This document shows, piece by piece, positions 2,015 through 58,274 of a stretch of DNA of 64,000 nt. The stretch covers positions 1 to 64,000 of IMG/VR virus record IMGVR_UViG_3300023202_000034. One strand, 5' to 3'. A program made the translations under genes and the position numbers. Numbering within the stretch: the stretch's first letter is position 1; every line of letters starts with the position of its first letter. The notes beneath the pieces were generated by a model. That model saw only the letters and a program-made list of their open reading frames with translations. It was not told the origin of the DNA and did not search any database. Source of the DNA: a virus.

Positions 2015-3258
2015 ATCAGATCGCCTGTAAAGAAGACCTTATACCGTGCACGAGATACTGCAACGTAAAGCATACGGGCTACCTGATTGGTATCACGGCA
2101 TTTCTTAACGTCGTCCAGATCAATGAACACAGCGTTGTATGTTGAGCCTTGAGACTTGTTGATGGTGCATGCGTAAGCTGCACGCAAATCAATCCAGGCT
2201 CGGTTAATGTCGGAAACAACATCAAACTGGTTTTCCTCTTTGGCCAGGTTGACACGCTTTTTCTTGTCATCCGGGTTGGTAGGCATGAACGCCGTATGGC
2301 GATTGTCCAAGGTGTACTCAAAACCAGGCACATCATGTTCTTCGGCAGGTGTCATCGAAGTAATGCGCACCATTTGATCGGTCTTGATCTGACAATCCCG
2401 GGTATGGATGTAAGCATTGCAGACCGCGTAATCCCCTTCAGAGAACTGAGGACTGCCTTTGACCAGGTTACGGATGCCATGGTTATAACCAATGACGGTC
2501 TTGTTGGTCCAAGCCAGTACCTTGGAATCCCGGTCGGTCCAGTCCGGACGGTTGAATTCTTTAACGATCTCCGCTTCAAAAGCTTCCCGGGGCAACCATT
2601 GAATATGTTGACCATCGGGTTTGAATGAGAAGAACTCGCCAGTATTGACCGTGTTCCGGAAAGCTGTAGACAGATCAATGATCGGGTTTCCCTTGGCTTG
2701 GCGAACCACTTCGGTCAACTCTGCTGTAGGGAAGCCTGCGTTAAACACGGGTACCTGTGACGACTTTACAGGGGTCAGCTGGGCAGGGTCTCCGATGAAC
2801 ATGATCTTACAGTTCTCGGTACGCTTGAAAATCAGGTCCAGCAAATGGGAATCCACATAGCTGGCTTCGTCAATAATGATCAATGCGTTGCGGACGATCT
2901 CTGCTTTGGGCGCCGGCACCAGCGTACTGACCTGAGTCACGTAGTTCTTTTCAACACGCAGCCCGAGAACGGACTGGATGGTACGCACTTGTTGCTTTGC
3001 AGCCAGCTCAAAGGCTTCTGCTGCTTTGTTGGTGGTAGCGGTTAGAACCAGTTCCATGTTCTTCTGTTTTGGGTCAACCAAAGCCAAGGTACGGAACAGT
3101 TTTGAGATCTGCTCGATGAGGTATTCAACCAGCGTGGTTTTACCAGTACCGGCATAACCTTTCAGGACAAATACGTGTTCGTTGGGGTCAATGACAAACT
3201 GAGCGAAGCCCTCATAGGCCGCTTGTTGCCCTGTGGTAAGTTGCAATGCTGCGCCCAT
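2011..3258 (-). CDS. SF1B (Dda/RecD-like) DNA helicase
   Basis: GYAGTGKT Walker A, IIDEAS, GDPAQL, KSQGSTY, YVAVSRAR. Confidence 0.93.
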   Translation of the reverse strand: MGAALQLTTGQQAAYEGFAQFVIDPNEHVFVLKGYAGTGKTTLVEYLIEQISKLFRTLALVDPKQKNMELVLTATTNKAAEAFELAAKQQVRTIQSVLGLRVEKNYVTQVSTLVPAPKAEIVRNALIIIDEASYVDSHLLDLIFKRTENCKIMFIGDPAQLTPVKSSQVPVFNAGFPTAELTEVVRQAKGNPIIDLSTAFRNTVNTGEFFSFKPDGQHIQWLPREAFEAEIVKEFNRPDWTDRDSKVLAWTNKTVIGYNHGIRNLVKGSPQFSEGDYAVCNAYIHTRDCQIKTDQMVRITSMTPAEEHDVPGFEYTLDNRHTAFMPTNPDDKKKRVNLAKEENQFDVVSDINRAWIDLRAAYACTINKSQGSTYNAVFIDLDDVKKCRDTNQVARMLYVAVSRARYKVFFTGDLI

Positions 3259-6065: not shown

Positions 6066-6945
6066 TCAGAACAGCTCAGTAGCGTTCCGTGTAACCCAAT
6101 CCTGTACCGCTTTGTTTTGCAGTAGGGGTTTCTTTCTACGGACAATTTCCCGCAGACAGGTCACCTGAAACTCAACAGGAATACGCTGAACGAATTCCAT
6201 CAGAGGTCCGATGTTCACTTCGGTTGCGTTATGCGCAATGGTACCGGTCAATGCATACAGCACGTCCGGTTCTTCTGGGACTGTGACACCCATCGGATTG
6301 GCCGCAATTTGCGGTACGGTCAGCAGCTGGCGGTAGATCTGTGAGTAACCGAAGAACTCCCGGGCTACACCTTCAGAGATGGTGCCAGCCAGCAGTGGCA
6401 GCAGGTCACGTTCAATACGCTCTTCGCTTTTGATAATCCGTGAGCAGAATTCCCAGGTTCTGGGACTGGCGTAGGTTTTGTCATCATGATCCGGTTGGAA
6501 TCGGTACAGGTTGTCTGGCTTGTACTTGATGTACGATGTGATCCGGTGATCAATGCCGTTGGACGTTGCCCATTCAATCCACTGATCTACATCCACAGCC
6601 AGTTCCAGGTGAACCAGTCGTGACTGCAAGGCTGTGCTCATCTCTTCAACCATGGCGTTGTCCGTGTCCAGGTTACCAGCACAGGCAATGGCACAGTTCT
6701 TGTGAATGTTGAATTCACCGATCTGTTTGTCCAGCACCACTTTGTAAGCGGCTTTCTGTACCGAGCGATCAGCGTGATTCATTTCATCCAGTAACAGAAG
6801 CCAGCCAGCATACTCGTGAACGTACTCAGTACCTTTTTCATCCTTACGGAGTTCGGTTGGCAGAGCGTCACCTTCCAGTGGGAATGTACTCATCGGCAGA
6901 TAGCTGGCACGACGGGCTTCTTTATCGATGTGCGGAAATCCTAAA
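6066..6945 (-). CDS. MoxR-like AAA+ ATPase (N4 gp24-like), exon 2
   Basis: Walker B LLLDEMN, AGN, ALQSRL, SPRTWE. Joining to exon 1 gives DPTDLLGFP and a 354-aa protein. Confidence 0.88.
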
Positions 6946-7761
6946 CCTTATGTTCGAGGAAGGTCGCAACACCTTCCCCCGTTCTCTTATGAACTGCTGC
7001 ATATCACTATGCAGAGCAGACTATATCAACACCCTCTGTTTACACAGGTGGGGTGGCTACCGTTTCGAGCACCATTGGCTTGTGCTCTACTCCCTCATGG
7101 GATAGTCGTTCGGCATATTATCCAAGACTGTCCCAAAGATACGCCCTGTACCGTCGATTCTTTACCTTGTTCAAATAGCTCTGAGTAATACCAAATTTGG
7201 TCGCGGTGCCTTTGACACTAGCGCCTTGCTTGATTTCTCGGAGAGCGTCTAATAGTTCAGAATCTGAGTATTTCGCTTTATGGTGGGCCTGGCCAAGTGA
7301 AACCAAACCACTCTGTAAAGCGTGGGTGTAATTCTTTCTTTGGGTAACGATCTCTAGGTTACTGACTGCGTTGTTGCTAGGGTTTCCATCAAGGTGGTTG
7401 ATGACCTTACCCTCAACGCTTCCTAGATATGCACTGGCAACCAAGCGATGTACAAGCCCGTAACTCGCAATCATCCAATACTGATTTTTGGATCTAGCGT
7501 TATTCACTTTCTGGGGCTTGAGTTGGCGTAGGTTACCTTGCTTGGTCGAGAAGATATTACCTTCACGATCGGCGTAGATACCGTTGTGCATCGTTTCCTG
7601 CATAGTCGTTACCTCCTGTGTTTGTTAAATAATAAACACAACGACTATAGAAGTCAATTTTGGAATTTAGCACGGGATTGTCCTCACCATTATGTGGGCG
7701 GAGTTTCCCCGTTTAGGTAGCTTTCGACACAGAATTTCTCCTGTGAAGCCCTTATTAGTTA
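6946..7761 (-). mobile_element. Group I intron (816 nt) with HNH homing endonuclease in the AAA ATPase gene
   Basis: Exon ends in U (GACCU), intron ends in G (CAUAAGG). P4 AACGGGG/AAUCCCGUG; P7 CGACUA/AUAGUC; in-frame stop just inside; removal restores the frame. Confidence 0.88.
7118..7603 (-). CDS. Intron-encoded HNH homing endonuclease
   Basis: VHRLVA...INHLDGNPSNNAVSNLE; C-terminal HTH-like segment; AGGAGG RBS. Confidence 0.9.
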   Translation of the reverse strand: MQETMHNGIYADREGNIFSTKQGNLRQLKPQKVNNARSKNQYWMIASYGLVHRLVASAYLGSVEGKVINHLDGNPSNNAVSNLEIVTQRKNYTHALQSGLVSLGQAHHKAKYSDSELLDALREIKQGASVKGTATKFGITQSYLNKVKNRRYRAYLWDSLG

Positions 7762-7946
7762 AGGTCGGTTGGATCACACTGAGCCAGTCGCAGATCGATC
7801 AGCTTCAGGTTGAATTGTTTGGCAATGGCTTTGAATAGCTCAGACTTACCACAACCAGGAGAGCCTGCCAGGAACGGTACCAGACCGACTTTGATGGCCC
7901 GGATAATAAGATCGTGGGCCTGGTTCATGTTTACGGGAGTTGTCAT
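7762..7946 (-). CDS. MoxR-like AAA+ ATPase, exon 1
   Basis: Walker A GSPGCGKS, IDLRLAQCDPTDL. Confidence 0.88.
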
Positions 7947-10827: not shown

Positions 10828-11126
10828 CATCAGTTAATCAGGACGCTACTCCTGACCTTACTTCCCGTGGTAAGTCTCAAACTTTCGTCTGAGTGTCGGA
10901 CTATATCTTCACCCTCGATTTCTCGGTGGGGTGCAAGGCGCTTCGGCCCTCGCTTGAGTGGCCTATGGACATTATTTACCCAGTGGGTATCTCGTCCTAG
11001 TCTCTACACCTTCCAACGTGTTACCACACTGGCTTGGCACGGGATTGGCTTAGGTGTTACCCCTTAGCGTCCCCCGTTTTCACCTCGTTTCATCAGCCTA
11101 TTACTAAGCTGCGGAGCCTAAGATTG
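10828..11126 (-). mobile_element. ORF-less group I intron (299 nt) in RNAP II subunit 2
   Basis: P1 GAGU/GCUC with U.G at the splice site; P4 AACGGGG/AAUCCCGUG; P7 AGACUA/AUAGUC; terminal G; frame restored on removal. Confidence 0.9.
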
Positions 11127-12201
11127 ACTCATCATGGATACACACAACAGGGAATGGCTTATGGCGTAGGCAGTCATTGACGACCTTGGCCAGTGCCTTC
11201 AGGTGATCAGAATCCAGTGCTTCCAGATCTGCGAAGGTCGCATCATCCAGAATCCGGATATCTGCCATCTTGCTGGTTTCATAACGGCCTTTGAGAATAG
11301 GTACCAGTTCCTTGGTAGTTGCACAGAACTGCTTCTGTTGGCTCTCACCAGTGGCACGTTCCAGTAAGATGATCTCAATGGATTTAGTAGCCCATTCCAT
11401 CAGGTGGCGATCGTAGTTGCATCGACGGATCAGACTCCGTAGGACATACGCATCTATGGAGTGGATAACATTTGCCACGTTGCTTAAGCCAGTCTCTTTA
11501 CCTACGTTCTCCTTGTATCTGTAAGTAAAGGTTGCGTGATCCAGTTCGTCCACTTCAATCCGCTTCTCTACCACATCCATGACTTTCACATGGGCATGGT
11601 AGTTGTCTGGCAGTACCCAGCTGTGAGACAGGGCATAGGGTTGCCAACTTTCCAGCAGATCTTGTAGTAGCTCACAAGCTCCCGGAGCCATTTTCCACAT
11701 GGCTTTGTAGAAGGCATTTAGCTCAGGAGTGTCCTCACCAAAGATCAGCTTTGGTTGTTCTTTGGAGCCATATAAAACCGTCATCGTCGCTTTCTTTACG
11801 TGATCACGCTCACTGGCAGGCAGGTGAGGTACCCACTTGCGCATGATGTTGGTGCACAGCGTGTAGGCATCAGCACGCTGGTTTGGGTTAACCAAGCCAG
11901 TAGCCTCTGCACCACTATGACAGCCTGTGGTAGCTGACATGATCTGCATCCCACTACACACCGCATCAAAGCCAACCATGTGGCCAGTAGGTTCCCCTCT
12001 CTGAGCCTTACGGATGGCCTGCACCGCCTTGAAGTACAGCGGACGTTCCTTCCACTTACCAGTACGGGCATGGCCCAACTGTTCCAATTGCTCAAGATTC
12101 TGTTCAGCCCACTCAATACGTGGTTCAAAGTTCTCTTTATCTAGTCCCCACTGGTTTGCTGCGTCAATCAACAAGTACTCATACCCTGTAAATTCTTGCA
12201 T
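11127..12201 (-). CDS. RNA polymerase II subunit 2 (N4 gp16-like), exon 1
   Basis: T7-like motifs A (GFDAVCSGMQ), B (RDHVKKATMTVLYG), ANVIHSIDA, and C (CIHDE). Confidence 0.92.
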
Positions 12202-43546: not shown

Positions 43547-44150
43547 AAACGAGGTCTCTCATTTTGTCTGCGTTAACAGGGGTGGCTTGAATAAAGGGGA
43601 GGATGTTCAGGAATTCAGTGGTCTGAAGTCCTGCCTCAATAGCACCGATGGCATCAGCCATGTGCTCGGCCTTGGAGGCACTGACGGAGGTAACCCCGTT
43701 TCGTGTCACCATTGGCCAGTTAGCGTTGGGATGGAGCTTCACAGCTCGATCAATGATTTCGGCTTTGGAGGCAGTCTTACTGCCCACCGTGGCCAGTTTG
43801 ACTTCAGTCGGGGTCACCTCAAAGAACTGAATACCCTGGGCACGTAAGGCACCCAGGACACCGACACAGATGCCATAGGAAGCCATGGCTCTGGCAGACT
43901 GGCTACCCACCGGGACTTCCACGAAAACACACTGTACGTCTTGAGAAGCCAGTGCAGCCTTGAAGGCCAACTGTCTTGCTCGCTCCAGATCTTTACTGTT
44001 TTGCCTGACCGTTTTACCGGTGGCGAAATCAGGATTGATCAGATCCAGGGTGTGTACCGTCAGCTTCTTGGTTTCGGTGTCATAGTGGCCTTTGGCCAGT
44101 CCCCAATTGTTCAGGGACGGGTCGAAACCACAGACGGTTATTAAGCTCAT
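43530..44150 (-). CDS. RuvC-like Holliday junction resolvase
   Basis: GFDPSLNNWG, VEVPVGSQSARA, EHMADA; start 44150 has a GGAG RBS and ATGA overlap with the HNH stop. Confidence 0.85.
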   Translation of the reverse strand: MSLITVCGFDPSLNNWGLAKGHYDTETKKLTVHTLDLINPDFATGKTVRQNSKDLERARQLAFKAALASQDVQCVFVEVPVGSQSARAMASYGICVGVLGALRAQGIQFFEVTPTEVKLATVGSKTASKAEIIDRAVKLHPNANWPMVTRNGVTSVSASKAEHMADAIGAIEAGLQTTEFLNILPFIQATPVNADKMRDLVYGNPS

Positions 44151-44701
44151 ACGGTACTCCAGGTTCTTCCGGACTTGATCGCACTTATTGCGGCATCTGT
44201 CACACCAAATTTGTCTGCAAACGCTCGACCCATACCACGCTTCCAATGGGGTAAGGCTGATTTAATTTCAGCAACCTGGATTTGGGTTAGTGTTGCTTTT
44301 GCGATCGCTTCACCACGTGCTTGAGTACCGTGGTTGCAACGATCTTCAGCGTTCGATTTGACAGTATCCCAGCGAAGATTTCCTGGAGTATTGTTTTGTG
44401 CCTTACCATCGTTATGACATGCCTGAGCATCAGGAAAAGGACGTTGACCTTTGAAAGCCAGCAATACCAATACGTGTACCGGTACCCACTTTGGTGATTC
44501 ACCATCGGGCGCTACTGCAGCACGTAGGTACTTCTTACCTTTACTATTACTCAAGTTGAGCATGTGAGGTTCCGTACTTAAGCCTCCCCGACCATTACGG
44601 CTTTTGTATGATCGGATGCGTCCAAGAGAAGACGCCTCATACCCAGTAAAGCCAGGTATAGGGCGCCACTCTTCCATCCCTAATACAGAGATCAGACTCA
44701 T
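44147..44701 (-). CDS. Free-standing NUMOD4-HNH homing endonuclease fused to a resolvase N-terminal stub
   Basis: EEWRPIPGFTGYEASSLGRIRS (NUMOD4); VHVLVL...ACHNDG...NN..GNLRWDT. Confidence 0.88.
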   Translation of the reverse strand: MSLISVLGMEEWRPIPGFTGYEASSLGRIRSYKSRNGRGGLSTEPHMLNLSNSKGKKYLRAAVAPDGESPKWVPVHVLVLLAFKGQRPFPDAQACHNDGKAQNNTPGNLRWDTVKSNAEDRCNHGTQARGEAIAKATLTQIQVAEIKSALPHWKRGMGRAFADKFGVTDAAISAIKSGRTWSTV

Positions 44702-44958
44702 GACAGTTTACCGCTCTGCGGGTTGCCAACTGTGTTTGGCGGGATTTCCAGGTACCCTTCTTCAAAGGCCTTCTTGGGAGACCAGGAATGGTACTCATCC
44801 GACGTGCCTTTGTAATAAATCACATGGTAACCGTCAGCCGAGGAGTCGACTTTCCCGGGTAACGGGAAGGGACGTACATTGGCTACAAAGTCCCCCAATG
44901 TCATGGGCTCTGCGTGAACCTGTTTGATTGACTGGTAGCGTTTCAGATTGCCGCTCAT
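44698..44958 (-). CDS. Conserved phage protein (YxSxKxVxA...YxSWSPKxxFExGY)
   Basis: 86 aa; ATGA-coupled on both sides. Confidence 0.75.
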   Translation of the reverse strand: MSGNLKRYQSIKQVHAEPMTLGDFVANVRPFPLPGKVDSSADGYHVIYYKGTSDEYHSWSPKKAFEEGYLEIPPNTVGNPQSGKLS

Positions 44959-45290
44959 ACGATTGGTTTCTCCCCATTCAGTTGAGCGTACAGTCTATAC
45001 CCTTCCAGCTCCCACAGTCGCTTGCTGACCTGTTCCCGGGCATTACGCTCAGCAATCGTCCGTCCCAGCTCTGCATCAAAGTTTTCTGGTGATACACAGG
45101 CACTGTGACCGGTTGCCAGGTAAAACTTCTGATCCAGATAGGCATGACAGAACGTGCTAGTCGTTCCGGCAGGCTGAGAAAAGAAAAAAGATACACGACT
45201 CATCATGGTAAAGATGTGGTCTACCGTAACCCGGGGAGCAGTCAGACCCTTGTCCTGAATCTCCTGCTCTACTGCTTGATCGTTCGACAT
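44955..45290 (-). CDS. N4 Gp49/Sf6 gp66 family protein
   Basis: EQEIQDKGLTAPRVT...GHSACVSPENFDAELG...WELEGY. Confidence 0.85.
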   Translation of the reverse strand: MSNDQAVEQEIQDKGLTAPRVTVDHIFTMMSRVSFFFSQPAGTTSTFCHAYLDQKFYLATGHSACVSPENFDAELGRTIAERNAREQVSKRLWELEGYRLYAQLNGEKPIV

Positions 45291-45348: not shown

Positions 45349-46110
45349 TTACTGAGCAAACAGACTGGTTGGCTGCGCCTTATTGGCCGTGGCCGCAGCT
45401 GCCATTGGGGCACCTGCTTTGGGTGCGCCGGCGGTGCCTGAAACACCTTTGGAACGATCACGAACTTGACCGGCCCACTTCTGTTCCCAGGTGTTGTAGA
45501 ACACGGCTTCTGTAGCGCCACCCTGTATTTCCATAACAGTCTTCTTGTCATGGTCTTCCAGTGCACAGAAGAACTTATCGATCTCGTTCTTCTCGATGGT
45601 TTCGCCCGTTGCGTGATACTCACCGTCAGTACCCTTCTGGGACTTGTCTTCAATCTGCTTGAAGATAGCGACGTACACTTCTTTGCCCAGCAGATCCATC
45701 AGCATATCCACAGAAGTAGGTACTTCTGCTTTGGCTTCTGGGCTGTAGAGATTGATGGTTTTCTTCTCAGTGTCCATCGCGGCAATTTCCTGGCCGGTGG
45801 TCAGCTGGCACAGGCTGTTGGCCAGGTTGAAGCCAGGCAGATACTGCTTGTCACCGTTCTTGTCGATGAAGAAGTTCTTATTGCCTTTGGCATCACCGGA
45901 AGCCATCCACAAGGTTTGGCGGACTTCACGACCGGCGCTGGTCATCAGGTGCAGTTTCAGGCCCAGGGCGCCACCAGCAGACTTCTGCAGGTAAGCCAGG
46001 GTAATGGTGGTCTTGTAGATCGCGGTATCCAGTGGGCTAAAGTCACCGCCTACAACGTCCTTTTCGCCTTGAATTTCATCAGAGGTAGTCAGGTTAGAGA
46101 GAAGGCTCAT
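45349..46110 (-). CDS. Single-stranded DNA-binding protein (N4 gp45-like)
   Basis: KQYLPGF, NEIDKFF, C-terminal SLF; synteny after gp44. Confidence 0.85.
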   Translation of the reverse strand: MSLLSNLTTSDEIQGEKDVVGGDFSPLDTAIYKTTITLAYLQKSAGGALGLKLHLMTSAGREVRQTLWMASGDAKGNKNFFIDKNGDKQYLPGFNLANSLCQLTTGQEIAAMDTEKKTINLYSPEAKAEVPTSVDMLMDLLGKEVYVAIFKQIEDKSQKGTDGEYHATGETIEKNEIDKFFCALEDHDKKTVMEIQGGATEAVFYNTWEQKWAGQVRDRSKGVSGTAGAPKAGAPMAAAATANKAQPTSLFAQ

Positions 46111-52324: not shown

Positions 52325-52708
52325 CTACTTTGCAAGAGGAAAGAAGGTTTCTGCTTGTTTCATGGCTTCAAGGAAATGCTCTTTGAATTCGCTGCTAAAC
52401 CATTCGGTAGTACCCTTACTGGGTACAGCCTCGAAGAAGTTATTGATCGTTGTCAGGATTCTGGCTTCAACTTCTACAGCATCCTGAAACATTTCAGTAA
52501 CCGCAACAAGCTGAACAGAGTTCCTTGGTCTATTTGAATTATACGCTAGTAACCTCTTGTGAAGGTTGGATGTTCTTCCGATCTTGATATAGTCAGGTTC
52601 GGTACAATCATGGACCATGTAGATGAACCCCCGATTGTCTGGGGGTACTACAAAGCTCTCTGTTGAGATTGCAACCAGAGGGTTTCCATCTTCTCGTAGA
52701 TAACGCAT
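52325..52708 (-). CDS. T5orf172/GIY-YIG-like protein
   Basis: GFIYMV...YIKIGRTSNLHKRL..YN...E...EWF; GGAG RBS. Confidence 0.78.
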   Translation of the reverse strand: MRYLREDGNPLVAISTESFVVPPDNRGFIYMVHDCTEPDYIKIGRTSNLHKRLLAYNSNRPRNSVQLVAVTEMFQDAVEVEARILTTINNFFEAVPSKGTTEWFSSEFKEHFLEAMKQAETFFPLAK

Positions 52709-52801
52709 GTACTTACTCCGTGATGGCAATAGCCCCTACCGCTCCGCTTCGGGGCTATTGCCTGGTTCGGTCACCCGCTCCTGGGTGTCAACTATCATGG
52801 C

Positions 52802-55800
52802 TTAGATTTCGCAGGCACCCCCACTGCACGCCTGAGCGCCGGTGGTATTGATATCGACATACTTGGGTTGTGTGAGTACCGCGGTAAAGTCGATGGGCTT
52901 CAGAGACCGCTCAATGGCCTTCCAGCGGTGCAGGTTGTACACGTCCTTGAGGCAATCGGTGGTGGCCTGGAGGTCACCTGAGAAATACCGTTCTGCAAAT
53001 TGCAGCGCACGACGTACCCAGTCCCGCTTCAGAAGATCGTGAGAGCCATGCTGCGACAGGTTCTTACCTTTCTCCGTGGCTTCAAAGCAGGCTGCCCAGA
53101 GGTCACTGTTGAAGGCATGCAGGCCATCGACCAGCAAACCCGAGGCAAACATGGCGGCATCACCGTACTTGGTATAGATCTCATCACCGGTCAGGACTTC
53201 CTGGAACGGGGCTTGGGGATACGCCTTGTCGCCGCCTTTGGCCAGCAGGGATACCCCGGCAAACCACTGACGATTGTCGTACAGATACTGCTCGACCTCG
53301 TCCCAGTCATCGACTGAAATGGTATTGGAGACGTTGTGACGTAGACGTTTATCCACGCAGAACTCATCCGCAGTACCATACTCTACCCAGAACTGTTGGG
53401 CTTTCTTGACATAATCCAGTTGCTTCACACCCAACAGATCCCGTTTGAAAATGGAACCTTCCTTGGCAATCAGCGGGAAGCTGACCATCTTATCGGTACC
53501 GGTGGCCGACCAAACAGAGTCTTCAACCATTTCCGGATTCTGGCGGATGATCTCTTGCAGGCCTTCATCCATTTCGTTCATCTGCATGTTGCGGAAGAAG
53601 CGAGGTGAGTGTTCACCGTGAATACCTGAGGAGGTCCCGAGCATGACGGAGGCATTACCACTGGGCTTGACACAAGTTGTCCGTGCGGCCGGGTTGATAC
53701 CTAACAGTTTGGCCATGATCTCATTGGTTTTGCGGACTTCCAGGGCGCCGGCTTGCATGTTGAACTCGTCGAACAGTACGTCCGGGTTGTTCATCCAGCC
53801 AGTGATGGAGACACCAATAAGGGCTTCACGTTCTACAATGGACTGGGTAACCCCGTCATCGTCCATGTGAGGAAAGTGGGTGTACCCAGCTTGCAGTGTA
53901 CCGATGATGGAGCCAGCTTTGGCTGCAATCAAAAGATCTTCCAGGGTGTTGCACTTGGAACCGTTGATTTCGGAGAGGTTACACATCTGCCAGCCAGAAC
54001 GGCCTTGTGCATCGTAGCCTCGCATACCGATTTCAACACAGGGATTGAATACAAATTCCAGATCTTCTGTGAAGATAAAACCAGGCTCACCAAAGTCACG
54101 GACAGACTTCATGATGTGAGCCCACTCTTCCCGGGTCAGCTCGTCACGCTTGAGAACGACGGAGTTGTTGGATCGTCCCCGTTGTGGGTTCTCGTTGAAC
54201 CAGTTACCGGTCTTGGCGTTCAACATCTCCTGATCGTCTTTGCTGAACATACAGATGGTGGCTGATCGACGTACACCGCCACTGAGGACCGCATCAGCCA
54301 GGTGCATGACAATGTCGTACACATGGATGGGTCTGAGGCGATTACCTTCTCTGGTGGCTCTCTGGAGCAGTTCTTCGACCTTTGTCAGAGAACTCCGTAA
54401 ACCATCAGGTCCGGGTGCTTTGAAGCCACCGGAAATCAGTGCACCTTTTGGACGAATCAAGCCATAGTCAAAGTTGACGTGATAACCCTGGTACTCTGGT
54501 TTGGGGGCATCGGATTCCAGGAAAGAAGAGATCAGGGCATGCACTGCATCTTTCCAGCCTTCAATACTGTCCTCAATGACGAACAGCTTACTCTCGGAAC
54601 TGCGTGCTTTGATGTTGGGCAACTTGGCAACGTGGTGCTTCTGCACGGAGAAGCCAGCACCTGTACCGCATAACAGCAGATATAGAGCCTGACCAAAGAA
54701 GATCGATCGATCGGCGTAGGTCGCTGCACAGTTACCTGTTACCACTCCGTTGGGCATGATGAACGAACGGTCTTGATTTACTTCTAAGCACCAGGCAATA
54801 CCGGATTTTACGGCTGGCTCGATTGCTTTGACCTTCCAGCCTGCATTGTATTTGGAGCCCATATTATCTGAAGTACGGAAACTAATTGTGTAAGGACGTT
54901 TTCCTAAGTTGGTTTGCTGATCAGTAAGATCAGTCTCAGAAATAATCCAGACTCCAGCGATAGGGAAACATTTACGTATAAAATCAATGTGATCCGTATC
55001 TGAGCATTGAATTGAAGTGTACCGGGTACCGTGGTTATTACGGCTTTTCTCACCATCTGCTTGAAGATAACCGGCAACAAATGCTCGGACCATCTCAGGG
55101 GAATCTACAGAAGGATCTGGGGCGGTTTTTAGGTAGGTACCCGTGTAAGCATACGCATCACCTTTTAGCGAATCGTGCGTCCCTGTTTTGAAGCCCATTT
55201 CCTCAAAACGTTCTACAAACCGAGCATCTTTTCCACAAAGCCTGATCATGGAGTAAGTATGTGTCCCGTTTTTCTTAACACGGGTACCGTCCCCATAGAC
55301 CATCCCATAACACCAGTAAAGGCGTTCTGTAGGTGTTGCTAAGTCGTAATCAAACTCACCGAATGCGTTTTGAGGTTTCAGTAGGTTATCGCCTACTGAA
55401 AGGGTGGTGGTTTCAGAACCATCCTTGAGTAACCATCTGTGGTCAGATGTAGCAAAAACTTCCGTTTCATTAGTTCCTTTACAGAGGGTGATGCGGTTAA
55501 ATTTTTGATGCCCGTAGGAGCGGACAATTGCTTTTTGCCACTTACCTGTGTGGGAAGCAACAACCACTTCTTCACCGTCCTTACAATCACGAAAAGACCT
55601 GACACCTGCAGAGGTTACGAACTGCTCGGCTTCGTCAAAACAGTTGTAGACCTTGGCTTCGTGCTTGAAGATCTGATCACCACCAAACTGCAGTGTCCGT
55701 TGTGCCGCCAGCAGACGCTGGTCGAGATAGGCGTCTTCAGCAAACTGGATCATTTCTTCCAGTTCTGGTGTCATACGGTCTGCGTACTTTGTGCGGTGCA

Positions 55801-55957
55801 TGTTCATGACACGCTTGACTGCTTGTTCCCAACTTTCAAACGCTGCTACATCTTCTTGCCAACGGGAATAGTCCATAAAGAACTTGGCATCCTGCATCAT
55901 GGTTTGACCAATGCCCTTGGCAATAGGCGATTTATCAAACGAAAGGATTTCTCCCAT
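52802..55957 (-). CDS. nrdJ: Class II (B12-dependent) ribonucleotide reductase with intein (747 aa after splicing)
   Basis: GTGAGFSV, SGGVRRSA, NPCVEI, CNLSEIN, TCVKPSG, C-terminal CSGGACEI; no beta subunit gene in the window. Confidence 0.88.
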   Translation of the reverse strand: MGEILSFDKSPIAKGIGQTMMQDAKFFMDYSRWQEDVAAFESWEQAVKRVMNMHRTKYADRMTPELEEMIQFAEDAYLDQRLLAAQRTLQFGGDQIFKHEAKVYNCFDEAEQFVTSAGVRSFRDCKDGEEVVVASHTGKWQKAIVRSYGHQKFNRITLCKGTNETEVFATSDHRWLLKDGSETTTLSVGDNLLKPQNAFGEFDYDLATPTERLYWCYGMVYGDGTRVKKNGTHTYSMIRLCGKDARFVERFEEMGFKTGTHDSLKGDAYAYTGTYLKTAPDPSVDSPEMVRAFVAGYLQADGEKSRNNHGTRYTSIQCSDTDHIDFIRKCFPIAGVWIISETDLTDQQTNLGKRPYTISFRTSDNMGSKYNAGWKVKAIEPAVKSGIAWCLEVNQDRSFIMPNGVVTGNCAATYADRSIFFGQALYLLLCGTGAGFSVQKHHVAKLPNIKARSSESKLFVIEDSIEGWKDAVHALISSFLESDAPKPEYQGYHVNFDYGLIRPKGALISGGFKAPGPDGLRSSLTKVEELLQRATREGNRLRPIHVYDIVMHLADAVLSGGVRRSATICMFSKDDQEMLNAKTGNWFNENPQRGRSNNSVVLKRDELTREEWAHIMKSVRDFGEPGFIFTEDLEFVFNPCVEIGMRGYDAQGRSGWQMCNLSEINGSKCNTLEDLLIAAKAGSIIGTLQAGYTHFPHMDDDGVTQSIVEREALIGVSITGWMNNPDVLFDEFNMQAGALEVRKTNEIMAKLLGINPAARTTCVKPSGNASVMLGTSSGIHGEHSPRFFRNMQMNEMDEGLQEIIRQNPEMVEDSVWSATGTDKMVSFPLIAKEGSIFKRDLLGVKQLDYVKKAQQFWVEYGTADEFCVDKRLRHNVSNTISVDDWDEVEQYLYDNRQWFAGVSLLAKGGDKAYPQAPFQEVLTGDEIYTKYGDAAMFASGLLVDGLHAFNSDLWAACFEATEKGKNLSQHGSHDLLKRDWVRRALQFAERYFSGDLQATTDCLKDVYNLHRWKAIERSLKPIDFTAVLTQPKYVDINTTGAQACSGGACEI
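54731..55642 (-). mobile_element. Intein with LAGLIDADG endonuclease in RNR, 304 aa
   Basis: VYN|CFDEAE...ATSDHRW...VVTGN|CAATY; YGMVYGDG and AGYLQADG. Confidence 0.92.
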
Positions 55958-56059: not shown

Positions 56060-56487
56060 TTAGTCTACAAGTGCCGACCAAGAGACTGGATAAAGTGGTC
56101 TGATAATCTCATCCCATTGTTTAGCCAGGTCTTGGATTTCTTTTTGGGCATGAGCATCACTGCGTTGAATATACGCGTTGGCCCAGGCATAGAGTGAGCC
56201 GGTTACCCAGTAGGTTGTAAGCATGGATTGAGGCAGAACCATCCTGGCCTGTTCGGGGGCAATGCCGCGATTGATCATCTGGGTATAGAGCAGGCGAGCG
56301 TCTTCAACGAAGTTCTCATACTCGGACTTCCAGTACCCCTGTTGAGTGTCGGAGACACCTCCACCACTACCTTGCTTAATGCCACCGACTGGACGGGCAC
56401 GCCAGACTTCCGGCTCGTGAAACTCCGGCGTATCATCCACATAGCGACGACTTATCTCGTTATAGGTGAAACCAACCATGTGTTTGA
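56060..56487 (-). CDS. thyX: Flavin-dependent thymidylate synthase, exon 2
   Basis: KHMVGFTYNEISRRY, APEQARMVLP, HAQKEI; spliced product 248 aa. Confidence 0.9.
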
Positions 56488-57309
56488 CTTTATCTTCGAT
56501 GGGGAGCGTTAATCCCCACCCGTTCTCTTATGAACTGCTGCATGTTTCCATGCAGAAGAGACTATATCATCACCCTATTTCTAGGGGCTGGGCGCTTCCA
56601 CCAGACTTCTGGTGTACTTCCTCACGGAATAGTCGTTGAACCTTCTCTGCAAGTTCTACAGAGCTTGGCTGCTGATTGCCCTCGTCTTTCTCGTTAGGGG
56701 TTTCCAGCAATTCACCCAGTTCTTCCTCTATGAATTGCTTCATAGGGCGGCTTAAGCTGTATTCGCCTTTAGCTTGATCAAACTCAATAAGACCCATTTT
56801 GACCAACGACATAGACAGTGTTTCAAGCTGTGCATGTACGTTTCGGTGGTGGGCCATATTGTCACAGAGGTACAGATTTGTTGGTCTGAAGTCCTCTTTG
56901 TCACCGTTTACATGATGTACCTTTTCCTGTTTGGTAACTAATCGACCAATAAGATCGCTCATTACCAGACGATGGACAGGCATGTATCCATGGTTTGTGT
57001 TGGTTTTACCTACCCACACCATCGGGTAACCGTCTGAGTGCGTATAGATATTGCCAATGTTCTTGGGCTGTTGTTTGTACCCTTTATTCCAGGGTGTCTT
57101 TCCCAAGTTGGTCAGTTTGTTGCTACAACGGTAACAACGGTGAACGTCTTTTTTATAAGCGTTCCAGTAACTGACACGTTTTTCATCACCACAGTCATCA
57201 CATATACGGGTAACTTGATCGCCGGCTCTATCTTTCAACATACTACTTTTCCTTTGTTTGTTGCTTGATAAATGAGCCTAGCATAGCTATCGACAAATAA
57301 CAGAAGTTT
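56488..57309 (-). mobile_element. Group I intron (822 nt) with HNH ORF in thyX
   Basis: P1 CGGU|AAA...UUUGUCG with U.G; P7 CGACUA/AUAGUC; ends GAUAAAG; joining gives ARQRFKHM. Confidence 0.9.
56570..57241 (-). CDS. Intron-encoded zinc-finger HNH endonuclease
   Basis: CDDC/CYRC; VHRLVM...VHHVNGDKEDFRPTNL; C-terminus reads through the ribozyme core. Confidence 0.85.
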   Translation of the reverse strand: MLKDRAGDQVTRICDDCGDEKRVSYWNAYKKDVHRCYRCSNKLTNLGKTPWNKGYKQQPKNIGNIYTHSDGYPMVWVGKTNTNHGYMPVHRLVMSDLIGRLVTKQEKVHHVNGDKEDFRPTNLYLCDNMAHHRNVHAQLETLSMSLVKMGLIEFDQAKGEYSLSRPMKQFIEEELGELLETPNEKDEGNQQPSSVELAEKVQRLFREEVHQKSGGSAQPLEIG

Positions 57310-57628
57310 ACCGTTGCCTGGCTACAAAGATCGGGACGGTTTCCCGCATGGAGATCATGGCGTGAGAGAACGGTGTCCAATGAGTGGGCATGTTCTTGGC
57401 CCACTTGAGCGTGGCTTCAATTTCTTCACAGGCATACGGATTTTCTGTCTGGTCTTTAAGGCGATCAATTGCATTGTCCCAATCGGACTTCATACATCCA
57501 CGGGCCAGGAATTGAATTAAGCCATAATCCTTTTCAGTCAATTCTTTGGATACAGCGTTGAAGGAGACCCTTGCGGCGTTCGTGACTGTTAAATCCGACC
57601 CCATATGGTCTAAGTACTCAGCTAACAT
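57310..57628 (-). CDS. thyX: Flavin-dependent thymidylate synthase, exon 1
   Basis: DHMGSDLTVTNAARVSF, HWTPFSH, PIFVARQ; GAGGA RBS inside the HNH 3' end. Confidence 0.9.
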
Positions 57629-58154
57629 AATACAATCCTCTTACTACTTTGTTGATAACAGTACGGGATACTCCATACTGTTCAGTGAGTTGTTTGGTAA
57701 ATCCTCTAGGTGCTCTCTTACCGTTTAGTGAGGCGTAGGCGGCTTTAATTTCCTGGACTTGCGCAAGAGATAATTTGGCGTTACGGGGTGTTATCCCTTG
57801 AGCAGCTCGGGCCTTTTGGGCTGCTTGCTTACGGGAAAGTGGACACTTATCCATCTGGTTTTGTGAACTACTTCCAAGAAGGATATTGTCCTTGCTGAAA
57901 TCGAGAGTGTCCCCATTCCTGTGACGCACTTGTATATTTTCTACAAATGCAGCTTCACCATAAAACTGGTATGCAGCAAACTGGTGTATAGGAATGCCAT
58001 AAACCATCCCTCCCCAGTTAGTAGAGAACGTGGGGTACCGTTGTTTACCATGGCAACCAATTTTCAAAGGACCTTTTGGACCGATGAGTTGGTTCCCCTC
58101 TACACGATATCCTCGGGCTACAGCTTCTACGATGCGTTGTTGTGTTTTCGTCAT
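57618..58154 (-). CDS. Free-standing HNH homing endonuclease
   Basis: IHQFAAY...VRHRNGDTLDFSKDNI...QNQMD; C-terminal HTH. Confidence 0.85.
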   Translation of the reverse strand: MTKTQQRIVEAVARGYRVEGNQLIGPKGPLKIGCHGKQRYPTFSTNWGGMVYGIPIHQFAAYQFYGEAAFVENIQVRHRNGDTLDFSKDNILLGSSSQNQMDKCPLSRKQAAQKARAAQGITPRNAKLSLAQVQEIKAAYASLNGKRAPRGFTKQLTEQYGVSRTVINKVVRGLYYVS

Positions 58155-58205
58155 AATAAATCTCCAGAGTGTCGAAGCTATAATGCAGAGTTTACAACAA
58201 CAAAG

Positions 58206-58274
58206 CTAAATTATTATGGCTGCGTTCACGGTTGTAAGGTCTGATCCCATATGATCGAGGTATTCAGCAAGCAT
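58206..58274 (-). pseudogene. thyX: Orphaned 5' stub of thyX (22 codons)
   Basis: MLAEYLDHMGSDLTTVNAAIII*; 17/19 aa identical to the thyX start at 57628. Confidence 0.88.

Follow-up and report, generated by a model that had tools for sequence, protein, structure and literature searches.

The window analysed here, which comprises the first 64,000 nucleotides (nt) of the 72,964-base IMG/VR virus record IMGVR_UViG_3300023202_000034 (estimated to be 98% complete and N4-like in gene content), contains a RuvC-like resolvase gene preceded by an HNH homing-endonuclease open reading frame (ORF). Very probably, this endonuclease belongs to a free-standing cassette of the I-HmuI type that was inserted within the first codons of the resolvase, bringing along a diverged replacement for the start of the gene and leaving the native start fused to the HNH. 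The features of the locus are collected in Table 1.

A megablast of the locus against a phage collection gave no match, and relatives were located through protein searches. Two HNH-less loci were found in which the order of a gp49-like gene, a short ORF and the resolvase was kept: L010, from IMG/VR, with a resolvase 86% identical in protein and 73% in DNA to that of the window, and L093, from a metagenome, with a resolvase protein 66% identical. The latter was the one new empty site yielded by a scan of metagenomes, which also returned L092, a duplicate of L010. Orthologues of the 86-amino-acid (aa) ORF of the window lie directly 5' of the resolvase start in L010 (87 aa) and L093, and the resolvase begins directly on the upstream stop as MSLIPVLGMDPS in L010 and MSNTIPVLGMDPS in L093, with a stop/start overlap of GTGA in the former and ATGA in the latter.

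When these starts, in their longer reading (MSLIPVLGMDPSLNNWG in L010 and MSNTIPVLGMDPSLNNWG in L093), were aligned with the window, both junctions of the insertion were apparent. On the left, the window tracks the empty site for 29 nt, through the Met of VLGM and the GA of the Asp codon, and then enters the HNH (E-E-W-R-P). On the right, the end of the HNH is followed by a new start of 29 nt and then by empty-site sequence from the last base of the Asp codon onwards. The boundaries of the 551-nt insert are ambiguous because the dinucleotide GA is present at both ends. The stub left at the 5' end of the HNH frame matches the L010 resolvase start in 23 of 29 nt and in eight of nine residues, and a 13-nt stretch across the upstream stop/start overlap is identical in the window and L093.

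An initial annotation of this locus had described the HNH ORF as beginning with MSLISVLG ahead of MEEWRPIPG, which is exactly what is found, and had taken these residues for the old resolvase start, fused in frame to the nuclease with the overlap to the upstream gene preserved; the HNH-less L010 and L093 bear this out. The extent of the stub needs to be redrawn: the old start does precede NUMOD4, but it comprises nine codons plus 2 nt, in such a way that the ATG regarded there as the NUMOD4 start appears to be the Met of the ancestral resolvase (G-M-D-P-S, within VLGMDPS). Likewise, the break is located at the catalytic Asp as proposed, although inside its codon, after GA, and not just before it. 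A 5-nt microhomology, ATGGA, was perhaps shared between the ancestral resolvase and the HNH's own start. It is hardly credible that a free-standing HNH of the ordinary intergenic kind would by pure accident carry an N-terminal extension resembling the start of its neighbour. The ATGA overlap does force a second codon beginning with A in both ORFs, with higher odds of a shared Ser, but the stub aligns with the orthologous starts of L010 and L093, flanking nucleotides included, stubs match their own empty sites in three further lineages, and a similar extension was seen by eye in 0 of the 84 other HNH-relative loci listed, so that the unrelated NUMOD4-HNH loci starting with MSLISVLG that the annotation regarded as a sign of coincidence did not appear.

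The resolvase ORF now begins with MSLITVCGFDPS, overlapping the stop of the HNH ORF as ATGA. As already annotated, six of the first eight residues are shared between the stub and this new start while all seven codons after the ATG differ. With respect to L010, the replacement start is identical in 16 of 29 nt and differs in 9/9 codons, compared with only two of the next 12; three of its nine codons alter the residue, and it uses TTA and ATA, which represent 5% and 7% of the Leu and Ile codons in six large phage genes. By this comparison, the stub is the native copy, as it is closer to relatives than the inserted one. Regarding the background, the window and L010 differ in 47-61% of codons and share 68-79% DNA identity over four genes, a level to which the identity of the stub to L010 is close. 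The codon divergence between the window and L010 is moderate evidence, and the isolate pairs described below weigh more.

The interrupted gene is intact. The resolvase ORF is full length with respect to its relatives (alignment A4), with no coding gap, and G8, D10, P11 and S12 are invariant in this alignment, the Asp of G-x-D-P-S being D10, which we take to be catalytic by analogy with RuvC. No Pfam match was obtained for this ORF, and its profile showed a weak partial match to RuvC 7W8D (E 0.0059, residues 97-135 only). The isolates closest by resolvase protein are Schitoviridae, all of them below 60% protein identity, and N4-like markers in the window include an ORF of 3,633 aa, the size of a virion RNA polymerase, and a protein of the N4 gp49 family.

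The same layout was detected in other phages. The entries of the phage collection that best match the HNH (709 records, all below 60% identity) have it listed next to a RuvC gene or resolvase and come from N4-like and 112-kb nickie-type phages, among them HN01/HN04, JWAlpha/JWDelta, Rexella, nickie, phiK7B1, ZY21 and Nican01; in the four inspected (HN01, Rexella, JWAlpha and nickie), the HNH abuts the resolvase with an ATGA overlap in every case. Two Erwinia phages of a single species, Rexella with the HNH and Frozen without it, share 1392 of 1400 nt upstream and 539 of 541 nt downstream (99.4-99.6%). The resolvase of Frozen begins with MLIPVAGFD, and the HNH frame of Rexella opens with the same 14 nt (14/14 identical; MLIPV), a stub of five codons, fused to V-E-I-W-K-P-I-P-G and with no other ATG, GTG or TTG in the frame. 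The Rexella resolvase restarts as MKISVAGFD, with 7 of 14 nt different from Frozen.

A second pair is provided by Burkholderia phages, in which HN01 carries the HNH and both HN03 and HN02 lack it. The flanks of HN01 and HN03 are identical in 668/700 and 518/530 nt, and the HNH of HN01 starts at the same ATG, overlapping the SSB stop, at which the HN03 resolvase starts. The HN01 resolvase restarts as MIVCGLDPSL, compared to MLVLGLDPSL in HN03, with 9/9 codons after the ATG different (17 of 30 nt identical, 13 changed). Regarding JWAlpha, the HNH starts after the SSB stop at the position where the resolvase starts in the HNH-less phiAxp-3 (MRIPVLGMDPS); a close HNH-less partner was sought for this phage, and only relatives about 72% identical were found, phiAxp-3 being a distant empty site. 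JWAlpha (locus L008) also carries a second HNH_3-domain ORF immediately downstream (2590-3081 of that locus), so that endonuclease genes flank its resolvase on both sides.

The closest relative found for the window HNH, 58% identical, is that of contig L011, whose HNH frame begins with MSLQQSTKPGIQ-EEW, a fused stub of 12 codons. This stub is homologous to the resolvase starts of the HNH-less L165, L128 and L135, which read MPLPSPTKPGIR-VVGFDPS or similar. The new start of L011 (MKLK-VCGQDPS) has four codons before the shared Val-x-Gly, eight fewer than the stub; in sequence, it is similar to the xKV(V/C)GQDPS starts found in other contigs. Altogether, stubs of 1, 5, 9 and 12 codons were found, all in frame with the HNH and all ending 0-7 codons before the Asp codon; the different lengths therefore represent separate junctions. 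The replacement arrives with the endonuclease, as claimed in the initial annotation and as seen in Rexella/Frozen and HN01/HN03, but for the 'recoded copy' described there, a diverged or foreign allele is a better reading than deliberate synonymous recoding, given the residue changes and the shorter start of L011.

The 3' end of the cassette has a further recurrent trait: within the final HNH codons (T-W-S/R-H), the sequence TGGAG occurs in the window, HN01, L011, JWAlpha and the contig L044. The GGAG motif is placed 6-9 nt before the resolvase ATG (9 in L044), and TGGAA is present in place of TGGAG in Rexella and nickie. The Cys in V-C-G was considered as a mark of carriers and discarded: it holds in the window, HN01 and L011, but fails in JWAlpha (VVG), Rexella (VAG) and the HNH-less L110 (VCG). 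The resolvase of L110 (positions 1001-1081) starts with MIIRVCGQDPS and could be a resistant allele or belong to a lineage that lost the endonuclease.

The HNH ORF was analysed in parallel. NUMOD4 (PF07463) was detected by Pfam at residues 10-41 (E 1.1e-9, 38.9 bits against a cut-off of 23.4), the PHROGs match is an HNH endonuclease (E 2.7e-35), and the sole solved structure matched is I-HmuI 1U3E (E 7.2e-6, residues 11-135 against chain positions 2-116). Residues 1-9 lie outside the usual domain, because residue 2 of I-HmuI aligns with residue 11. The usual N-terminus, as aligned with four relatives, is M-x-E-x-W, and the window HNH has seven extra residues. H96, D98, G99, N104, N108, N117 and H124 are invariant in alignment A3, in agreement with an HNH of the I-HmuI type (NUMOD4 plus HNH_3) for which cleavage activity is predicted. 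I-HmuI is intron-encoded and nicks one strand; the window HNH, unlike it, is free-standing. The HNH and resolvase ORFs are separate and overlap at stop and start, and no self-splicing intron or intein surrounds the HNH; Rfam at gathering threshold called no group I intron at this locus, its only matches in the window being at 56538-56799 and 10876-11136. The GC content at third codon positions was 0.37 for the HNH, compared to 0.52-0.62 for neighbouring genes, which is a foreign composition. A search of the genome itself revealed no second copy of this HNH; the HNH at 7118-7603 alone was matched, weakly (E 1.1e-5).

The distribution of the family was examined in IMG/VR. The resolvase is directly downstream in six of the best 80 HNH loci, including the three most similar, two of the six being apparently the same genomes as JWAlpha and nickie; the other 74 are elsewhere. 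Conversely, this HNH was found within 1,000 nt upstream in one of the best 80 resolvase loci. Thus, as in the pairs Rexella/Frozen, HN01/HN03 and window/L010, presence is patchy at a fixed site. The 70 HNHs in a quick maximum-likelihood tree were all distinct, as identical sequences and two duplicate records had been excluded. In it, eight of the nine resolvase-adjacent HNHs fell in one weakly supported group of 12, and the adjacency label required two changes compared to 8.6 in shuffles (0 of 500 shuffles as low), although kin share labels anyway. The four HNHs of the group that are not adjacent to a resolvase had downstream ORFs that, judged by eye only and with no family scan, were not resolvase-like. 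Beside these, L064 (1664-2866) has a related HNH that runs into the start of a 400-aa ORF beginning with MTILWLDTET; by eye, this ORF has a 3'-5' exonuclease-like motif at its N-terminus, and it may be another nuclease-fold gene start associated with this HNH family.

In both N4-like phages and 112-kb nickie-type phages, the HNH is constantly next to a RuvC-type gene, which it overlaps as ATGA; this could also be expected if the HNH were not selfish but a domesticated, co-translated accessory of the resolvase. We regard this as very unlikely, because only one of the 80 resolvase loci has the HNH, presence and absence alternate within one species (Rexella/Frozen) and among Burkholderia phages, the codon composition is foreign, and the family members occupy many other sites.

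In the explanation that we favour, an invading cassette with its own replacement start, the HNH would nick or cut HNH-less alleles near the codons for the V-x-G-x-D-P-S strand, and repair from a carrier would copy the cassette, homologously on the resolvase side and sometimes illegitimately upstream, the latter giving rise to stubs of varying length. Only in-frame products would keep the HNH expressed. The 3' end of the cassette would supply the GGAG motif, the ATGA-overlapping start and the diverged N-terminal codons, so that the resolvase would be restarted and made whole without splicing. The diverged codons would keep an intact target from reforming and would protect the carrier from its own nuclease, whereas the captured native start would give the HNH the old initiation site of the resolvase and its stop/start coupling to the upstream gene. 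Such a lineage would be specialised on the 5' ends of RuvC-type resolvase genes in several phage groups.

Several points weigh against this explanation. Because the nearest empty-site relative is 73% identical in resolvase DNA, nine differing codons out of nine are only moderately unusual on their own (about 0.61^9, or the 16 of 598 eight-codon runs that were all-different between the window and L010). Fusion is not universal, the stub being reduced to the ATG in JWAlpha, nickie, L019 and L044. The HNH_3 domain (residues 74-118, E 2.6e-4) scored 21.0 bits, below its Pfam cut-off of 24.8. The support in the tree is weak, with the resolvase-adjacent L019 outside the main group and the four non-adjacent HNHs inside it. 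The window HNH could start at ATG9 rather than at the stub ATG, and because both are available, use of the stub ATG is not established in the window; in Rexella and L011, the stub ATG is the sole ATG before the conserved Trp, although L011 has an in-frame TTG further upstream. Besides the ATG used and the repair pathway, we infer both the target site and the immunity. Finally, the lineage-typical length and residues of the new starts in the window, Rexella and HN01 are compatible with a foreign source for these starts as well as with long-standing divergence inside the lineage.

This last point is also the basis for an unlikely alternative, in which the first resolvase codons were copied locally when the HNH was inserted. 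The downstream copy would then have changed where it stood, selection favouring changes that avoided self-cleavage or repeat-mediated deletion. In the window (MSLI in both), in Rexella (five codons each) and in HN01 (MIVCGL compared to MLVLGL), stub and new start are equally long and the residues of the new start are lineage-typical, which argues for old divergence. On the other hand, flanks around 99.5% identical in the Erwinia pair and the start of L011 argue for travel with the cassette: seven changed nucleotides out of 14 appear too many for recent divergence in place between such flanks, and the new start of L011 is not of stub length and resembles those of other contigs.

Table 1. Features of the resolvase and thyX loci, with positions in the window.
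Feature	Position	Strand	Basis or remark
SSB-like ORF	45349-46110	-	First in gene order at the resolvase locus
gp49-like ORF	44955-45290	-	Second in gene order, after the SSB-like ORF
Upstream 86-aa ORF	44698-44958	-	TGA overlaps the stub ATG as ATGA; translational coupling context
HNH homing-endonuclease ORF, 184 aa including stub	44147-44701	-	Pfam, PHROGs and I-HmuI matches; ATGA overlaps at both ends, with the stop of the 86-aa ORF and with the resolvase ATG (44150)
Stub, native first nine codons + 2 nt of the resolvase (MSLISVLGM + GA), now the 5' end of the HNH frame	44673-44701	-	Matches L010 and L093
Insert, 551 nt with respect to empty-site relatives: HNH body, ribosome-binding motif, ATGA overlap and new start	44122-44672	-	Junction alignment with L010 and L093
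GGAG ribosome-binding motif for the resolvase, 6 nt before its ATG, in the HNH codons Trp-Ser	44157-44160	-	Sequence
Replacement resolvase start (MSLITVCGF + GA), 3' end of the insert	44122-44150	-	16/29 nt match to the L010 start
RuvC-like resolvase gene, intact, 206 aa	43530-44150	-	phrog_159, E 3.3e-41
thyX cassette: stub, different HNH, diverged copy	57572-58274	-	Second instance in the same genome
thyX stub, orphan 22-codon ORF (19 native codons, 3 more, stop)	58206-58274	-	Starts MLAEYLDHMGSDLTTVNAA
thyX-locus HNH, own ATG	57618-58154	-	Distinct from the resolvase-locus HNH

The initial annotation had also stated that two HNH types share one architecture in this genome. A stub, an HNH and a diverged copy are indeed present at thyX as well, but the thyX stub is not fused to its HNH as the resolvase stub is. 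The thyX gene restarts at 57628 with MLAEYLDHMGSDLTVTNAA, overlapping the end of this HNH, which was found in 0 of the six related loci (L176-L181). The stub and the copy are identical in 17 of 19 aa, as local duplication could also produce. In nucleotides, they are identical in 40 of 57 positions, and the relative L180 is identical to either of them in 42 of 57, about as far as the copies are from each other; this equidistance therefore fits a donor-derived copy, as expected of a donor allele.

On a wider scale, we tentatively propose that HNH genes of this kind could be natural 'home-and-rescue' drives, in which the ribosome-binding motif, the ATG and the diverged codons would be selected as integral parts, and start capture would be selected as a way of borrowing expression signals. 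This would represent a general splice-free route into the 5' ends of conserved phage genes, used twice in one genome, with one clade acting on the region of the RuvC catalytic Asp across unrelated phage families. The window cassette follows the same logic as engineered gene drives equipped with a rescue copy of the target that resists cleavage. The layout shows how a homing endonuclease can occupy an important gene without an intron or intein, the gene being restarted and its old start taken over. It also accounts for the short orphan ORFs and the unusually extended N-termini of endonucleases that appear in phage annotations, as well as for extreme local divergence at gene starts between near-identical phages. 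The existence of isolate pairs that differ in the element (Rexella/Frozen) makes homing, target-site immunity and the use of start codons directly testable.

As far as the accessible text of the sources goes, the nearest described cases are gene hybrids created by mobile endonuclease ORFs (mORFs) in fungal mitochondria, in atp6, atp9, cox2 and nad3 of Glomus and in atp6 of Allomyces (PMC3630166, where Paquin et al. 1994 is cited on mORFs). In the accessible sections of that paper, mORFs share with the window an intron-free endonuclease ORF in a coding region accompanied by a diverged duplicate terminus, which is the one expressed, and a native terminus left alongside that is closer to relatives, the ORF being sometimes in phase with the host gene. 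They differ in affecting the 3' end, with LAGLIDADG or GIY-YIG endonucleases in mitochondria, whereas the window has a phage HNH at a 5' end (PMC3630166). Unlike what those sections describe for mORFs, the native leftover in the window supplies the endonuclease start and coupling, and the cassette supplies the ribosome-binding motif and the ATG.

The MobA element of T4-like phages, composed of mobA with a gene 60 cassette (bioRxiv 10.1101/2022.08.31.505936, citing Bonocora et al. 2011), also resembles the window. According to the preprint, it is a phage HNH endonuclease within an ORF, with a divergent homologous replacement (homR) of the deleted target and a new downstream start, and its insertion protects against self-nicking; it differs in that the topoisomerase is split into two functional subunits, with extensions of about 44 aa, and a 50-nt bypass is needed (bioRxiv 10.1101/2022.08.31.505936). 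In the window, unlike in MobA as presented there, the resolvase is whole, the stub of nine codons is fused to the HNH, and there is no bypass element. The free-standing Seg and Mob endonucleases of T4 ('intronless homing') likewise need no intron or intein, have starts that overlap an upstream stop in a manner suggesting coupling (UAAUGA in mobE) and target a neighbouring conserved gene, with flanks co-converted in T4, as read in the available portion of PMC2988022. In contrast to the window, they are intergenic, with cleavage sites hundreds of bp away, and that portion describes no duplicated target codons or start fusion (PMC2988022). The ShiLan-type hidden HNH in a phage methylase is, like that of the window, a splice-free HNH insertion inside a coding sequence, but, as the accessible text has it, translation runs in frame through the insert, which forms an additional loop in the host protein, and the HNH is out of frame, whereas the gene in the window is restarted by a replacement 5' end (PMC11855218). 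In the accessible parts of PMC10448857, endonuclease genes are reported at recombination boundaries and the window layout is not described, and the available text of the JWAlpha genome paper notes two endonuclease genes after ssb and nothing more on them. A phage report of a replaced gene 5' end with a fused stub was not found in the open-access literature.

At least five endonuclease-type genes are present in the window. The thyX gene (56060-57628, minus strand) is interrupted further in, with an N-terminal part at 57308-57628 and a C-terminal part at 56060-56479 (Pfam Thy1 profile positions 80-191), and the space between both parts contains an HNH ORF (56570-57241) and the first of the two Rfam group I intron matches (56538-56799, 100 bits). 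The second match (10876-11136, minus strand, 62.9 bits) is on the 3' side of the RNA_pol-domain ORF at 11104-12201, and N4-like RNA polymerase genes may be intron-split. The HNH ORF at 7118-7603 (minus strand) lies between a 63-aa Walker-A-like ORF (7755-7946) and a 275-aa ORF (6066-6893), from both of which it is separated by untranslated gaps. The DNA that follows this HNH encodes an opposite-strand peptide resembling the one after the thyX intron HNH, and a related intron is therefore suggested near this ORF, although Rfam did not call it at gathering threshold. Finally, an ORF with a T5orf172/MUG113 domain, of a GIY-YIG-like endonuclease family, was detected at 52325-52729 (minus strand), just downstream of a 1,051-aa ORF (52802-55957) for which no Pfam match was obtained at E 0.001.

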